Shown: piece after piece, positions 35,651 through 60,788 of the stretch | Layout: each line of letters starts with the position of its first letter | Numbering within the stretch: position 1 is the first letter of the stretch | From: Natranaerovirga hydrolytica | Lineage (GTDB): Bacteria; Bacillota; Clostridia; Lachnospirales; DSM-24629 | Direction: 5' to 3' | Length of the DNA: 64,000 nt | Assembly (NCBI RefSeq): GCF_004339095.1 | Contig: NZ_SMGQ01000013.1 | Location: 136,352-200,351, forward strand | Notes under the pieces: generated by a model | Database searches by the model: none | Told to the model about the DNA's origin: nothing | Seen by the model: the letters and a program-made list of their open reading frames with translations, nothing else | Made by a program: the position numbers and the translations under genes

Positions 35651-35804
35651 AGACAGAGAATGACCAAGTTTTTGATGTGTATCTAAAAAAGTAGGATGCC
35701 CTTTTCTGTTGCACTTTGGTGTATAAAATTGACAGATGAATATAAAAAGCGTATATATAAGTAAAGCAGTAGTTGTATATTCAAAAGATGAAAGGGTGAC
35801 AGAC

Positions 35805-36659
35805 ATGAAAGTGATAGACGCACATCTTCATTTTTCTAATAGAGAAGGGTTTAAAAACACAGCAAAAGAAATTGGCCAAGTGGATTACAGTGCAACTGGA
35901 TTAAAAAAATCATTTCAATCAGCTAATATTGTTGCAGGTGTCATAATGGGAACACCAAGTAGAGAAACCAATCAAGTTTATGGTTACCCAGATGAATTTA
36001 TATATGAAGATGGAACATTAGACTGTTTGTTTTCATGTGTAGGTGTTAATTCAGAAAGGTTAATTGAAGATGCTGAAACGGAACTGTTTTATATAGAAGA
36101 AGAACTTAAAAAAGATAAAGTAGTGGGCATAAAAATTTATGCAGGATATTTTCATTATTATGCTTATGATCCAATATATACACCGGTTTATGAATTAGCA
36201 AAAAAATACAATATTCCAGTTGCCATACATTGTGGGGATACCCAATCACCCAGCGGGCTTTTGAAATACGCCCATCCTTTAACCATAGATGAACTGGCTG
36301 TCAACTATTCAGATATTAACTTTATTATATGCCATATAGGTTCGCCTTGGGCTTTAGATGCGGCAGAGGTAATTGCTAAAAATAACAACGTGTATACCGA
36401 TTTATCAGGATTATTGGCAGGTAATGAAAAAGAAGTTAGAAGGATGAAATCAGTAAGATTATTTAGAGAGCATTATCAAAAAGCACTGATCTTTGCAAAT
36501 AGTTATGATAAGGTTTTGTTTGGAACAGATTGGCCTCTTGTGCCCATACAACCTTATGTTGAGTTTGTTCAAAGTCTTATTCCTAAAGAATATTATGAAC
36601 AAGTGTTTTATAAAAATGCTTTAGAGGTGTATTCAAGAATGAAAAAATATATTGATTGA
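35805..36659 (+). CDS. amidohydrolase-family metal-dependent hydrolase
   Basis: N-terminal IDAHLHF metal-binding motif. Confidence 0.6.
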   Translation: MKVIDAHLHFSNREGFKNTAKEIGQVDYSATGLKKSFQSANIVAGVIMGTPSRETNQVYGYPDEFIYEDGTLDCLFSCVGVNSERLIEDAETELFYIEEELKKDKVVGIKIYAGYFHYYAYDPIYTPVYELAKKYNIPVAIHCGDTQSPSGLLKYAHPLTIDELAVNYSDINFIICHIGSPWALDAAEVIAKNNNVYTDLSGLLAGNEKEVRRMKSVRLFREHYQKALIFANSYDKVLFGTDWPLVPIQPYVEFVQSLIPKEYYEQVFYKNALEVYSRMKKYID

Positions 36660-36693
36660 CCTTATGCCTCTTACTAAGGTAAGAGACATAAGA
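36660..36693. repeat. long hairpin CTTATGCCTCTTAC-N4-GTAAGAGACATAAG (family B copy)
   Basis: Inverted repeat with 14-bp arms. Paralogous copies at 48316 and 58587. Confidence 0.55.
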
Positions 36694-36695
36694 CA

Positions 36696-36740
36696 AGTTT
36701 AAAGCCGATAGAATTGGTAATCCTATCGGCTTTAAATATA
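36696..36740. terminator. bidirectional terminator hairpin between convergent genes
   Basis: AAAGCCGATAG/CTATCGGCTTT, 11 bp. Confidence 0.55.
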
Positions 36741-48283: not shown

Positions 48284-48315
48284 AAAAATAGTATGATTTT
48301 CAGCGAAACGGGTGT

Positions 48316-48340
48316 CTCTTACGTTAGTAAGAGGCATCAG
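48316..48340. repeat. hairpin family B copy (CTCTTAC-GTTA-GTAAGAG)
   Basis: Perfect 7-8 bp inverted repeat sharing the arm sequence with 36660 and 58587. Confidence 0.5.
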
Positions 48341-48349
48341 TTGAGTTAA

Positions 48350-48404
48350 ATATGAAAGCCCAATCTGCAAACTTGCTAGCAAGGATTTGGAGATTGGGCT
48401 TTTG
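48350..48404 (+). repeat. hairpin family A copy 1: variable stem enclosing conserved loop GCAAACTTGCTAGCAAGGATTTGG, then T-tract
   Basis: Stem GCCCAATCT/AGATTGGGC. Preceded by AATATGAAAG. Followed by TTTTG, so it probably terminates the permease gene. Confidence 0.65.
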
Positions 48405-48740
48405 TTGATATGAATCAAGTCTATTTTATGCTCTTTATTATCCTATAATTGGGCTCAGAGAGTAAAGATAGCTTGGTTTTTAAAAAAATAAAAGGCATTT
48501 ACCAACAGAGTCTTTACAGTTAAATTGTATAAATGCTAAAATACTTATGAGAAAACTTTTTTGAAATAATGATGTAGAAAAAATCAGGCCATCAATTGAG
48601 TGAAATTTATTAAAAAAAGATAAGAAGATTTATAACCATAAAAAGGATTTATGTAAAAGAAGAAAGAAAAGGGCCATTAAATCTTTTGATATTAACCTGC
48701 CCCATGTAGCTCCAAACCCAGTAGCTACACAGGTTATCAA

Positions 48741-48797
48741 TGAAAGTTAAATTTCCAAATCCTTGCCAGCAAGTTTGCAGATTTAACTTTCATATTA
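48741..48797 (-). repeat. hairpin family A copy 2 (inverted orientation)
   Basis: Stem GAAAGTTAAAT/ATTTAACTTTC. The loop is the reverse complement of the conserved motif. 22 nt upstream of the LacI start. Confidence 0.65.
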
Positions 48798-48812: not shown

Positions 48813-49802
48813 ATGACTATATATGATATTGCTAAAGAAGCAGGTGTATCTGCGAGTACAGTTTCTAGAGTGATCAATAATAAGCCAGGTATTAAAGAAG
48901 AAACAAGGGAAAAAGTTAAAGAATTACTAGAAAAATATAACTATGTACCCAATGTAGCTGCAAGAGGATTGGTTATGCAGAAATCTAAAACCATTGGTAT
49001 TCTAGTTGCTGACGTAAGAGTAGCACACCATATAGAAGGGGCATATATCATTGAAAAAGAATTAGCTGCAATAGGATATTATAGCATTATTCTTAATACA
49101 GGTCATAAAAATGAGGAAAAAGAAAAATATATTAAAGCGTTAGAACAAAGAAGAGTAGATGGTATTATACTTATTGGTTCGACTTTCCAATGTGACTATA
49201 TTAAAGAAGTCATTCGTAAATCCTTTAGAGAAATTCCAGTGATTATAGCCAATGGCTATATTGATTTACCCAATGTTTATGGCATTATAATTGATGAGTT
49301 GAATGGAATCAAGGATTGTGTTAATCTTCTACACTCAAAAGGGCATACTAAATTAGCATTTGTATTAGATCATCATACACCTAGTAATTATTCAAAAAAA
49401 ATAGGTTTTATGGAGGCCATGATACAAGAAGGATGGCAAGAAGACCAATTATGGTTATATGAAACAACAAGCTCAGTAGAAGGTGGATATCATATTACAA
49501 AAGAAATTGTTAAAGAGCATCCTGATATTGAGGGGATTGTTTTTAGTGTAGACATTACAGCAGTAGGTGCCATAAGAGCTTTAATGGATTTGAAAATTTC
49601 TGTACCAGAGCAGGTAAGCATTACAGGCGTTGATAATACTATTTTTGGAGAAATTTCATATCCTAAACTGACCTCATTAGATAATAAACTGAAGGATTTA
49701 AGCCGGTTTTGTGCCAAAGTATTGATAGATGTTTTAGAAGGGAAAGATACACCTAAAAAGATGATGTTATTTACATCTATAGTAGAAAGAGAAAGTACTT
49801 AA
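48813..49802 (+). CDS. LacI-family transcriptional regulator
   Basis: HTH MTIYDIAKEAGVSASTVSRVINNK and a periplasmic-binding-like domain. Confidence 0.8.
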   Translation: MTIYDIAKEAGVSASTVSRVINNKPGIKEETREKVKELLEKYNYVPNVAARGLVMQKSKTIGILVADVRVAHHIEGAYIIEKELAAIGYYSIILNTGHKNEEKEKYIKALEQRRVDGIILIGSTFQCDYIKEVIRKSFREIPVIIANGYIDLPNVYGIIIDELNGIKDCVNLLHSKGHTKLAFVLDHHTPSNYSKKIGFMEAMIQEGWQEDQLWLYETTSSVEGGYHITKEIVKEHPDIEGIVFSVDITAVGAIRALMDLKISVPEQVSITGVDNTIFGEISYPKLTSLDNKLKDLSRFCAKVLIDVLEGKDTPKKMMLFTSIVEREST

Positions 49803-58220: not shown

Positions 58221-58460
58221 TTATTTTAGATATTTGCTTTTAACTTGAAATTCTTCTTCAGTTAATTCACCCTTTGCAAAACGTTCTTTAAGAATGCTTT
58301 GTGCTTGGTTATTTTCTTTATTACGATCCTTAAATATTAAAAATATAATAATTCCTATAATAATGAGCCAAAATACTCCCATTCCAAACATACCTCCTCC
58401 AAATCCAAAGCCACAAGCACTTCTAGCTGAATTGGCACCGTTTGTCCAATTGTACCACAT
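58221..58460 (-). CDS. SHOCT-like small membrane protein
   Basis: N-terminal Gly-rich TM. C-terminal KERFAKGELTEEEF. RBS AAAAGGTGGTG. Confidence 0.4.
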   Translation of the reverse strand: MWYNWTNGANSARSACGFGFGGGMFGMGVFWLIIIGIIIFLIFKDRNKENNQAQSILKERFAKGELTEEEFQVKSKYLK

Positions 58461-58523
58461 TATAAACACCACCTTTTATTTATTAAATATGAACTAATAT
58501 CATTATGTCATAAAGTTGTGAAG

Positions 58524-58582
58524 ATAATATGAAAATGTAATTTGCAAACTTGCTGGCAAGGATTTGGAAATTACATTTTCAG
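58524..58582 (+). repeat. hairpin family A copy 3
   Basis: Stem GAAAATGTAATTT/AAATTACATTTTC (13 bp). Loop GCAAACTTGCTGGCAAGGATTTGG. Confidence 0.65.
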
Positions 58583-58586
58583 CAAA

Positions 58587-58620
58587 CCTTATGCCTCTTA
58601 CGTCAGTAAGAGGCATAAGG
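58587..58620. repeat. hairpin family B copy (perfect 15-bp arms CCTTATGCCTCTTAC-GTCA-GTAAGAGGCATAAGG)
   Basis: Perfect inverted repeat. Confidence 0.6.
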
Positions 58621-58625
58621 TGAGA

Positions 58626-58690
58626 TAATATGAAAGTACTAATTTGCAAACTTGCTGGCAAGGATTTGAAATTAATGCTTTTATTGAAAT
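58626..58690 (+). repeat. hairpin family A copy 4
   Basis: Stem GTACTAATTT/AAATTAATGC (imperfect). Loop GCAAACTTGCTGGCAAGGATTTG. Confidence 0.55.
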
Positions 58691-58744
58691 CTTGTGTCTG
58701 AAGCGTAGCGTAAGGTATTTTCATAAGTTGAGTGATATGAAATA

Positions 58745-60100
58745 TTATTTAGGCAAGGAAATGATAAATTTACTACCTTGTCCTTCTGTGCTTTCAACGC
58801 GAATCGTACCATTATGGGCATTAATAATTTCTTTTACAATGGAGAGTCCTAACCCAGAACCTCCAGTCGCTTTATTTCTTGAAGAGTCTCCTCTATAAAA
58901 CCTTTCAAAAACAAATGGAATATCTTCTTTTTTAATACCGCAGCCAGAATCTTCAACAATAATTATCACGTGGTGTGAAGCGTTTTCCACACTTACTTTT
59001 ACAAAATCATTTTCAGAGGTATAGTGATAAGCATTTTTTAACAAATTAATAATAACCTGTTTCAGTTTATCTTTATCTCCGTTAATCAATACATTTTCGT
59101 CAGATTCAAATTTTAAAAAAATCTTTTTTTCTAAATACATGGTCTCAAATTGTATCATAACGGTTTGTATCAACTCATTTAATGAAAGCGTCTTTTTATT
59201 TAATGATGAAATGTGTGCATCTAAATCAGTTAGTTTGTCCAAATTCTCTACTAGTCTAGTTAAGCGAACGACCTCTTCGTAACAAATTTTTAATTTGTCC
59301 GGCGTAGGCTCCCATATATGATCTAATAAAGCTTCAATTTGATTTTGTAATACATTTAAAGGTGTTCTAAGTTCATGAGAGATATCAGAAGTTAAGCGCT
59401 TTCTTAAAAGTTCTTGTTGCTCTAGTGTTGAAGCCAAATGATTTATTGTAGAAGCCAATTTATCAATTTCAAAAGTATTAGAACGTATAGAAACTCTTGA
59501 AGATAGATCTCTTTCTAACAAGTTAGCGGTGTCATTAATGGTAATAATTGGTTTCGTTAGTTGTTTAGCAATAAAGTAACCTATAAAAATCGCTAATACC
59601 AAACCCAATATAGCAACAATACCAAGCCCTGTAAAAAGTGTGTTTTTAAACTTAATATCTGAATCACTTAAAAGTAAAGAACCGTATTGTCCAATATCAA
59701 CATATCCAATTAGATTATTATTTTGATAAATAGAATAAGTGGATTCTACATAATGATCTGAAGAAGTGGATGTATGTCTTTGAGAATGACTATGTGGCAT
59801 CATTCTAGAAGAGTGATTATGAGAAGTCCATATAACCTCTTCATTGGTATCACGCAAAGTCAGATAATACCCTTCTGTCATAGCATTATGACTTAAAGCC
59901 ATCAAAACATCATGACTAAGAGTCGTTGTACTTTCTAAGTAAGAAACAATTTCTTGATTTCTACGTTCTTGATTGTCGTATATATAGCTTTCAAATGTAT
60001 TATCAATGATTAGTTTAGTTACTAGGAAGAACATACCAATCATTATAATTGAAGAAAAAGCAAAGACTAATGTCATTTTTTTAGTTAAAGTGATTTTCAT
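58745..60100 (-). CDS. sensor histidine kinase
   Basis: Two TM helices, HAMP, and H-box SHELRTPLN. Confidence 0.8.
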   Translation of the reverse strand: MKITLTKKMTLVFAFSSIIMIGMFFLVTKLIIDNTFESYIYDNQERRNQEIVSYLESTTTLSHDVLMALSHNAMTEGYYLTLRDTNEEVIWTSHNHSSRMMPHSHSQRHTSTSSDHYVESTYSIYQNNNLIGYVDIGQYGSLLLSDSDIKFKNTLFTGLGIVAILGLVLAIFIGYFIAKQLTKPIITINDTANLLERDLSSRVSIRSNTFEIDKLASTINHLASTLEQQELLRKRLTSDISHELRTPLNVLQNQIEALLDHIWEPTPDKLKICYEEVVRLTRLVENLDKLTDLDAHISSLNKKTLSLNELIQTVMIQFETMYLEKKIFLKFESDENVLINGDKDKLKQVIINLLKNAYHYTSENDFVKVSVENASHHVIIIVEDSGCGIKKEDIPFVFERFYRGDSSRNKATGGSGLGLSIVKEIINAHNGTIRVESTEGQGSKFIISLPK

Positions 60101-60788
60101 TTTTCTCACCTTCAAATCTATACCCAATGCCAAAAACAGTTTTAATATATTCAGGTTTTTTAGGGTTGGTTTCTATTTTTTTTCGTATATTTTTTATATG
60201 GGCATCTATGGTTCGGTCATAGCCATTATAGTCGATTCCAAGAACTTTATCAATTAACGCTTCTCTAGAAAAAACCTTATTTGGATTAACGGCAAAGAAA
60301 ATTAAAAATTTATATTCTAATCCAGTAAGATTAAGAGGAACATTATTTTTGTATACACGGTGTTCTGTAGTATGAATAATTAAATCATCGTGATTGAATT
60401 TTAAAATAGGTGAAATGGTTTTTGATGCCTTAACCCTACGAAGCAAAGTTTGAACCCTAACAACCAGTTCTCTTGGACTAAATGGTTTTATTAAATAATC
60501 GTCAGCACCTAATTGTAACCCACTAATTCGATCATCAACTGTGCTTTTAGCAGTTAACATAATAATAGGCAGATCAGATTGTTTGCGAACTTCTTTACAA
60601 ATTTCTTCACCGTTTATAGTAGGTAACATTAAGTCAAGAATCAATAAATCAGGTTGTATTTGAAAAAACAAATCTAAACCTTTAGCACCATCAAGAGCAG
60701 TAGAAACTGTATGATTATCTTTTTCTAAATATGCTTGAACAACTTCTAGCACTTTTTCTTCATCTTCTATAATTAAAATATTTGCCAT
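60081..60788 (-). CDS. OmpR-family response regulator
   Basis: Receiver domain (DLMLP, K) and winged helix. Confidence 0.85.
   Translation of the reverse strand: MANILIIEDEEKVLEVVQAYLEKDNHTVSTALDGAKGLDLFFQIQPDLLILDLMLPTINGEEICKEVRKQSDLPIIMLTAKSTVDDRISGLQLGADDYLIKPFSPRELVVRVQTLLRRVKASKTISPILKFNHDDLIIHTTEHRVYKNNVPLNLTGLEYKFLIFFAVNPNKVFSREALIDKVLGIDYNGYDRTIDAHIKNIRKKIETNPKKPEYIKTVFGIGYRFEGEKNENHFN

Follow-up and report, generated by a model that had tools for sequence, protein, structure and literature searches.

The spacer between a histidine kinase gene and a SHOCT-domain gene of Natranaerovirga hydrolytica contains a block of stable hairpins, which we propose to be two tandem copies of a dispersed, modular palindromic repeat. 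The analysis concerns a window of 64,000 nt of contig NZ_SMGQ01000013.1, and coordinates given without a locus name are positions in this window. With moderate confidence, we conclude that the block was inserted at its present position, and that it ends or insulates the operon formed by the response regulator (RR) and histidine kinase (HK) genes. The part of this combined reading that holds the block to be an inserted dispersed repeat is much firmer than the part that assigns it a terminator role. The evidence consists of the repetition of the sequence, its structure and covariation, its absence from the orthologous spacer of Vallitalea okinawensis, its position with respect to the downstream promoter, and the direct repeats flanking it.

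The genes concerned are all located on the minus strand, and encode an OmpR-type response regulator (60081-60788), a HAMP/HisKA histidine kinase (58745-60133) and the SHOCT-domain protein (58221-58463), a context that the original prediction had described correctly. It had also placed two copies of a hairpin A, named A3 and A4, on either side of a perfect hairpin B, and these are indeed seen in the sequence between positions 58500 and 58750. On the plus strand, the first unit starts with hairpin A3 (58530-58581; basal stem GAAAATGTAATT/AATTACATTTTC), which scores 68.9 bits with model R1. Its apex, CAAACTTGCTGGCAAGGATTTG (58545-58566), is composed of a 4-nt loop, 4 bp, a GA bulge and another 4 bp. 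The linker TTTTCAGCAAA precedes the second hairpin of this unit, which belongs to family B (58586-58621) and has a perfect stem of 15-16 bp and the loop GTCA; the arms CCTTATGCCTCTTAC-GTCA-GTAAGAGGCATAAGG match perfectly at 58587-58620, and the stem reaches 16 bp if A58586 and T58621 are included. Hairpin A4 of the second unit (58630-58684; stem GAAAGTACTAATT/AATTAATGCTTTT; 54.5 bits with R1) has one bulged C and G-U pairs, and its apex (58647-58668) is identical to that of A3. The second hairpin of unit 2 (58690-58728) is degenerate, with pairing left only at its base (CTTGTG...CATAAG), and is followed by GTTGAGTG, as are the other B copies. Therefore, the start of the block stands as predicted, but its end does not, because the degenerate hairpin continues beyond the proposed position 58690 and the block runs to 58742. 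In total, the array spans 216 nt, corresponding to two complete tandem units of hairpin A plus a second hairpin, and 2 nt separate its right edge from the stop codon of the kinase gene (58745-58747, minus strand).

The sequence ATATGAAA is present exactly three times in the block, in direct orientation on the plus strand and always at a unit edge: at the left edge of the array (58527-58534), at the junction between units 1 and 2 (58628-58635), and at the right edge (58735-58742). When reverse-complemented, the first copy equals the first half-site region of the response-regulator box of the SHOCT gene described below.

Alignment of the window copies with their closest relatives elsewhere (loci labelled L followed by a number, see below) resulted in a unit of ~100 nt. 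It starts with ATATGAAA, usually located inside TAATATGAAA, and continues with hairpin A, a linker TTTCAnnGAAA, a second hairpin and (G)TTGAGnTA, after which either ATATGAAA or TAATAT follows. The base of hairpin A is conserved, with GAAA(G/A) pairing with (C/T)TTTC. Its mid-stem of 3-4 bp is unlike in each copy yet complementary (GCCC/GGGC in A1, GTTA/TAAC in A2 and ATGT/ACAT in A3). The 22-nt apex CAAACTTGCnnGCAAGGATTTG is invariant; it folds into two helices of 4 bp each, separated by a GA bulge on the 3' side, and a loop of 4 nt. The second hairpin exists in more than one version, of which family B is just one; A2, L008 and L011 have another version at the same position. These versions share the base AACyyG...CrrGTT, and hairpin A has only AACyTG in common with the B and C versions.

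A 26-nt core of hairpin A is present four times in the window (48364, plus; 48756, minus; 58541, plus; 58643, plus), and none is expected in shuffled sequences. The two remaining A copies are located near 48.3 kb, where the order is a linker lacking an A hairpin before it (TATGA followed by TTTTCAGCGAAAC), hairpin B1, ATATGAAA, hairpin A1 and ATATGAA; because this order differs from that of the array, the modules can occur separately. B1 (48311-48341, plus), which lies directly 5' of A1, is a shorter form of B with a 10-bp stem (TGTCTCTTAC/GTAAGAGGCA). A1 (48352-48405, plus; stem AAAGCCCAATC/GATTGGGCTTT, tail TTTTGTTG) lies 66 nt past the stop codon of a Na+/H+ antiporter gene and has ATATGAA on either side. 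Hairpin A2 (48740-48793, minus; stem GAAAGTTAAAT/ATTTAACTTTC) has the inverted orientation, and the second hairpin of its unit (48694-48735, minus) is of the "C" version, AACCTG-TGTAGCT...AGCTACA-TGGGGCAGGTT, followed by TTAATATC. The end of A2 is ~10 nt before the ribosome-binding site of a LacI-family gene at 48813. A1 and A2 face each other over ~330 nt without a credible open reading frame (ORF; 48412-48690), and between them we found a sequence that matches an extended -10 promoter well, TTTACA-18-TG-TAAAAT (48513-48542, plus); such a promoter would put the inverted A2 unit in the 5' untranslated region (UTR) of the LacI-family gene.

A solitary B-type hairpin, with two mismatches in its second arm, is present at 36660-36693 (plus). 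It begins right after the TGA stop codon of an amidohydrolase gene (35736-36659). The end of this gene consists of linker-like sequence (..TATATTGATTGA), with the stop codon abutting the hairpin, and its last codons may be derived from the repeat. Further 3' of the solitary B, at ~36703-36735, lies a separate hairpin that resembles a bidirectional terminator. Thus, the arm of B recurs both at this position and next to an A copy at 48.3 kb, as had been predicted. The accompanying proposal that A and B form one composite element holds in so far as they are part of the same unit, in which A is followed by a second hairpin, but B is just one version of that hairpin and also occurs alone.

In a short-read Logan assembly of the same strain (SRR8436137), contig L017 starts within the apex of A3 (its positions 1-31 correspond to 58554-58584 of the window), and the left edge of the window likewise lies on a 2.4-kb contig. 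The break in A3 fits a repeat, and proves local duplication only. Repeats in N. hydrolytica break up short-read assemblies.

In folding predictions, these sequences do much better than their shuffled counterparts. The segment containing A3 and B folds with -48.6 kcal/mol (z = -9.4 compared with shuffled sequence), and z values of -5.6 and -5.1 were obtained for A1 and A2, respectively. For the minus strand of the whole block z is -7.6, with hairpin energies of about -10 kcal/mol for A4', about -28 for B and -18 for A3' (primes denote the minus strand). In an alignment of 19 sequences, 14 of the 21 base pairs vary on both sides, and not one of 500 shuffles reached the observed covariation or pairing; controls in which the alignment was slid stayed clearly below the observed covariation. 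Seven pairs vary on both sides within the low-GC subgroup, and in the copies of the metagenome-assembled genome (MAG) "bacterium H07658" the outer stem covaries too (AATGCCG/CGGTATT, AATGTCG/AGATATT and AATATCA/CGATATT). Of 21 copies, 15 fold better as the strand with CAAACTTGC than as its complement (energies summing to -323 and -269.5 kcal/mol, respectively), which is a mild hint of strand specificity. At L008 (4810-4925, minus), and also at L006 (1-70), L004 and L005, the apex half-site AACTTGC recurs just past hairpin A or within the second hairpin, in its 5' arm. In the minimum-energy fold of L008, the 5' half of the apex pairs instead with the second hairpin's far arm, a possible alternative structure.

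We then compared the spacer with its orthologue. The nearest other homologues of the kinase are only 47-48% identical, and the best named one is that of V. okinawensis, which also belongs to the Lachnospirales (family Vallitaleaceae; N. hydrolytica is a member of the Natranaerovirgaceae) and has the same gene order, RR-HK-SHOCT(-PepSY). Its kinase-SHOCT spacer is ~105 nt long, lacks the repeat element, and contains, in this order, a terminator (AAGTGAC-ttat-GTCACTTTTCTCTTT), TTCATATTTTCTTCACA, 9 nt, CATACT, GGAGGTG and the start codon. In N. hydrolytica, the 216-nt array is directly followed by the region of the native SHOCT promoter, located outside the repeat (58502-58533, minus), in which the box TTCATATTATCTTCACA (58533-58517) is separated by a 9-nt gap from the -10 sequence CATAAT (58507-58502), followed by AAAGGTGGTG and the SHOCT start codon. 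Because V. okinawensis has the RR-HK-SHOCT layout without the element, we consider the block to be an insertion. The original prediction had named absence of the element from orthologous leaders, with regulation unchanged, as an observation that would speak against it; the V. okinawensis spacer, which is without the element and keeps the box and the -10, comes close to that.

The pattern TTCATA-N5-TTCACA, 9 nt, -10 is kept in front of the SHOCT gene in both species. The same layout (TTCAyw-N5-TTCAyA, a direct repeat with 11-bp spacing, followed after 9 nt by a -10) is also present upstream of the RR gene in both, at 60854-60838 (minus) in the window, and the V. okinawensis boxes lie at 2193-2209 and 4418-4434 of L019. 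Activator sites of the OmpR/PhoB type usually consist of direct repeats with 11-bp spacing beside a -10. We therefore read the box as the regulator's own site at two promoters, i.e., it is probably the binding site of the OmpR-type regulator encoded by the operon. If so, SHOCT(-PepSY) belongs to the regulon of this regulator. Judged from its sequence, the SHOCT gene is thus predicted to have its own promoter downstream of the block, with a 5' UTR of ~30-35 nt. Consequently, the block does flank the kinase gene on its 3' side, as predicted, and lies upstream of the SHOCT promoter; it does not form the 5' leader of the SHOCT gene, as had also been proposed, because the conserved box and -10 (58533-58502, minus) lie between the block and that gene.

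To determine the distribution of the apex, the exact 22-nt pattern was searched in one genome per species; N. hydrolytica itself was not returned by this search, and the numbers of loci are a lower bound. The apex was detected in at least 11 loci from seven other assemblies of Clostridia with GC contents of 29-61%. Three loci in a Eubacteriales MAG (~30% GC) have the unit architecture of N. hydrolytica, seen in this second genome at L002, L008 and L011. The apex is also present in a Candidatus Epulonipiscium MAG. In a Christensenellaceae MAG (L004, 6230-6616), at least three head-to-tail units of 149 nt are located upstream of, and divergent from, metK; each contains TATAAT, an A hairpin and two more hairpins, and two of them have the apex variant GCAAGGGTTTG. 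The H07658 MAG has six apex copies within a mosaic repeat of ~190 nt, and in a Hadza gut Clostridia MAG the A module comes first in an array, with different palindromic modules after it. The 61%-GC bin L007 contains one copy past addA; two more, in tandem, have the apex AAAACTTGCTTGCAAGGGTTTT, a variant with A-U in place of the closing C-G pair. An A-type hairpin whose apex matches exactly is also present on metagenome contig L016 (124-178), between the 3' end of the 23S rRNA gene and a tRNA/5S cluster of an rRNA operon. Four of the five JGI metagenome loci (L012-L015) were rejected as chance matches, because they show the apex match alone, without stems, in coding-like or high-GC sequence. 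At L003 (1-460, minus), L001, L005, L009 and L010, the A module is embedded in mosaics, such as arrays of GTCATTCTGAG..GAAGAATCCC and units of GTCATCGCG...GGCGATCCCC. In other Clostridia, the apex hairpin thus behaves as one interchangeable module among several, as far as these sequences indicate. All copies are extragenic, with a hairpin A palindrome of ~52 nt containing an internal bulge. The genes next to them are unrelated housekeeping genes, to which their orientation is inconsistent. In N. hydrolytica, a scan with model R1 revealed no new A copy in the 10 kb beyond the window edges.

From these data we infer mobility of the element, a terminator or insulator activity, and recognition of its apex. 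Two units would have been inserted at a ATATGAAA site, downstream of the RR-HK operon's stop codon and upstream of the regulator-dependent SHOCT promoter, by a process that would favour AT-rich, -10-like or ATATGAAA-like sites. The flanks can be compared with fixed-length target duplications: ATATGAAA occurs three times at unit edges, ATATGAA surrounds A1, and the L007 copy lies between two copies of GGTATAAT; the flanks of L002, L008 and L011 are merely similar to each other. Deletion of the L007 element together with one GGTATAAT restores a plain promoter, TTGCAA-16-TATAAT, and the L007 element itself provides GCGACA 16 nt before the second TATAAT. The flank repeats at A1 and L007 support the view that they originated at insertion. 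The invariant apex would most likely be the handle for the agent that copies or moves the element, be it an enzyme binding single-stranded DNA (ssDNA) hairpins or a host factor.

In the RR-HK transcript, which is read from the minus strand, the units would fold into three stable hairpins that end or stabilize the mRNA and shield the SHOCT promoter from read-through, a job that would be done by the ordinary terminator at the same place in V. okinawensis. In intrinsic terminators, a U tract comes immediately after a GC-rich stem of 5-14 bp. On the minus strand, inspection by eye shows the U-rich tail UUUCAUAUUAUCU after both A3' and A4'. Hairpin A is flanked by A/U tracts on both sides (ATGAAAG...CTTTCAT), and therefore could work in both directions. 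In A1, UUUUGUUG comes after a GC-closed stem (GGGC), and this hairpin looks like a terminator of the antiporter gene. A consensus scan revealed no other terminator after the kinase or antiporter genes.

Several observations weigh against this explanation. The simple consensus scan for terminators, which cannot handle bulged stems, reported nothing at either locus; the A stems are A-U rich at their base, and B is without a good U tract. No transposase and no terminal inverted repeats were found. The part of N. hydrolytica covered is only ~74 kb, with four A copies and three clear B copies at two loci. An identical apex in genomes ranging from 29% to 61% GC exceeds the conservation usual for selfish repeats, and suggests a function at the level of the host. 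Finally, the -10-like hexamer, seen in five taxa at a distance of 10-13 nt ahead of the apex, and the strong promoter at L007 fit a transcribed small RNA as well as they fit a target-site preference.

This last point leads to the possibility, which we regard as unlikely, that the units are genes for small RNAs or RNA elements close to promoters. TAATAT/TATAAT would then be the -10, hairpin A a 5' structure and the second hairpin the end of the transcript, with the invariant apex as the binding site for a conserved protein or target. The -10-like hexamer is present at this distance of 10-13 nt in N. hydrolytica, L002, L008, L011, L004 and L007; L007 has TTGCAA-16-(TG)TATAAT directly upstream, and the tandem units of L004 and L007 are unlinked to a downstream gene. 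The better folding of the sense strand in 15 of 21 copies and the invariance of the apex sequence across distant taxa point in the same direction. However, a transcription start 7 nt past the hexamer would remove most of the 5' arm of a stem that pairs up to the hexamer, and no -35 is present at the N. hydrolytica copies. The promoter-like sequences at the tandem L007 copies (TTGACT-17-TATGAC/TATAAC), with a -10 ending in C, fail the promoter scan. Moreover, the second hairpins have no U tracts on the plus strand, the hexamer is found on both sides of units, as in a target duplication, and there is no match to an Rfam family.

An equally doubtful explanation is that the units are derived from IS200/IS605 (PATE-like) or are REP-type elements without a host function, moved as ssDNA by a Y1 (HUH) transposase or a RAYT, which recognizes the bulged apex and inserts the element 3' of a short target, TATGA/ATATGAAA. 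This would account for the lack of terminal inverted repeats, the hairpin near each end, and the TATGA(AA) preceding every copy. The extrahelical GA bulge makes the apex strand-specific, tandem insertions are head-to-tail with the target repeated at the junctions, and the stems are maintained by compensatory changes, as in REP populations. On the other hand, the left and right hairpins are unrelated, while the ends of IS200/IS605 usually carry similar ones, and the flanks look duplicated (GGTATAAT twice in L007), whereas IS200/IS605 makes no duplications. In addition, no Y1 transposase gene was seen among the ORFs near copies in the 148 kb scanned with model R1, and the conserved GTAG foot of REP-type elements is absent.

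With a similarly low probability, the apex could be the recognition module of an undescribed system, i.e., a hairpin-guided mobile element with 8-bp flank repeats and no inverted ends, or a small-RNA or protein-binding motif of Clostridia. This possibility is raised by the occurrence of an identical bulged apex between 29% and 61% GC, its fixed distance to a -10-like sequence, the tandem arrays, the neighbouring promoters, and the copy in an rRNA operon spacer. Known motifs were also considered for the apex and rejected. A sigma-54 promoter would need the one variable loop base for its TGGCA, which is not present in taxa other than N. hydrolytica. A cre or other palindromic operator is disfavoured by the asymmetry of 2 nt and by the covariation of the outer stem, which speak for a folded strand. 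The sequence and stem layout are unlike those of a RAT antiterminator, only one partly paired site of the CsrA-type GGA kind is present, and the tandem G-A pairs of a K-turn are missing.

It is very improbable that the block regulates the SHOCT gene in cis, as a leader or as a riboswitch-like attenuator. The block does lie between the kinase and SHOCT genes with stable hairpins on the coding strand, but the box and -10 downstream of it leave a 5' UTR of just ~30-35 nt, the orthologous V. okinawensis spacer is without such an element, and the other copies follow unrelated genes in either orientation. The idea that the A copies are small-peptide genes (MKAQSANLLARIW..., MKVKSANLLARIW...) can be dismissed almost entirely: ORFs starting at the ATG of ATATGAAA have 18 codons in A1 and A2, and B3 supplies AAGGTGA 7 nt before the ATG of A4, but in A3 and L002 the ORF ends after 3 codons, A4 uses a different frame, the hairpin A copies of L004, L007 and H07658 have no ATG, and the variation in the stems is compensatory rather than synonymous. 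The structural rather than coding role favoured in the original prediction is borne out by these differences in frame, immediate stops and missing start codons.

Database searches did not connect the element to a known family. A search with Rfam 15 gave no match in the window at the gathering score, with only weak generic hairpin (microRNA-type) matches at E <= 10, and nothing that overlaps the A copies in 12 related loci. A scan of viral contigs for the apex gave 0 matches, a BLAST search of the block against plasmids and phages returned only chance matches of 20-40 nt, a full-text literature search for the apex sequence and its complement gave 0 hits, and papers on Natranaerovirga contain no mention of repeats. 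Identification as a known repeat, which the original prediction had named as an outcome that would overturn it, therefore did not follow from the Rfam, plasmid, phage and literature searches.

The element resembles several known repeat systems in part. The REP/BIME sequences of proteobacteria are short extragenic imperfect palindromes associated with RAYT transposases (PMC2817692). Like these, the N. hydrolytica repeat consists of extragenic imperfect palindromes after genes, with mosaics, tandem clusters and compensated stems, a class of sequences that can end or stabilize transcripts. Unlike them, hairpin A has a greater length (~52 nt), its conserved part is the apex and not a GTAG-type foot, the copies in the array are direct and not alternating, the unit includes a second, unrelated hairpin, and the host belongs to the Lachnospirales. 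A typical REP is a palindrome of 20-40 nt with a GTAG/GTGG foot, present in more than 100 copies per genome, with a RAYT gene flanked by repeats. The 5'-foot tetranucleotide is absent here, the foot being ATATGAAA in N. hydrolytica and different in other taxa, and there is no RAYT gene near any of the apex copies that were retrieved. BOX elements, which are known besides RUP and SPRITE, are modular boxA-boxB-boxC repeats of the pneumococcus, a low-GC Gram-positive bacterium. They share with our element variable combinations of modules, stable RNA hairpins and intergenic positions in either orientation, but there is no sequence relation, and BOX has neither an invariant bulged apex shared across families nor a counterpart of the ATATGAAA flanks.

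The Correia elements of Neisseria are miniature inverted-repeat transposable elements (MITEs), whose terminal inverted repeats match those of a DDE transposon (reviewed in PMC2229807). They are alike in having ~100-150 nt, an AT-rich target at both ends and a long RNA hairpin, and in that they can make promoters or terminate transcripts, but the N. hydrolytica element is without terminal inverted repeats: the unit ends are ATGTAATTTGC... and ...GGTGAGATA, and those of L007 are GTTACAGAAAG... and ...CCGCGAAGC. As in the PATE elements derived from IS200/IS605, there are no inverted ends, each end has a hairpin close to it (A on the left, the second hairpin on the right), the short flank is fixed and a hairpin is bulged; unlike in PATE elements, the end hairpins are dissimilar, the flanks look duplicated and a cognate transposase was not found. 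Catalogues of bacterial stem-loop sequence families reportedly list repeated intergenic sequences that fold as stem-loops. These are of the same general class, and the string search of the literature found neither the apex nor its complement. By its sequence features, the element does not appear to belong to any of the families for which membership can be tested: it lacks the GTAG foot of REP and the inverted ends of MITEs, its end hairpins are unlike each other, in contrast to PATE elements, and it has no Rfam match. We therefore consider it a previously undescribed repeat family, set within the known kind of modular palindromic intergenic repeats of Clostridia.

Another part of the window contains repeats of a different appearance. 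Between positions 600 and 25000, more than 25 short ORFs are present, all on the plus strand, including a PhdYeFM/ParE pair, Fic, GNAT and HAD genes and many ORFans. Between them, a repeat of ~120 nt occurs, with copies near 625, 2280, 3585, 7185, 14420 and 20100, which starts with TATAAC..TTATTCCCA and ends with TTGGGAATAAcaaaacGTTAT, an imperfect long palindrome with attC-like ends. This region resembles a gene-cassette array of the integron type, here within a genome of the Clostridia; no search for an integrase was made.

The tempting reading of a structured leader that controls the SHOCT gene is removed by these results. What the annotation gains instead is a two-unit insertion at the place where the kinase operon needs a terminator, just upstream of a conserved regulator-dependent promoter. 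The unit and its covariance model provide a handle to mask and count such repeats in Lachnospirales and other Clostridia, where they break short-read assemblies and create spurious small ORFs. The element is otherwise of an ordinary class, and it is the unusually conserved apex that is the feature worth attention: if it were a protein recognition site, it would point to an undescribed mobilization or RNA-binding activity shared across Clostridia.

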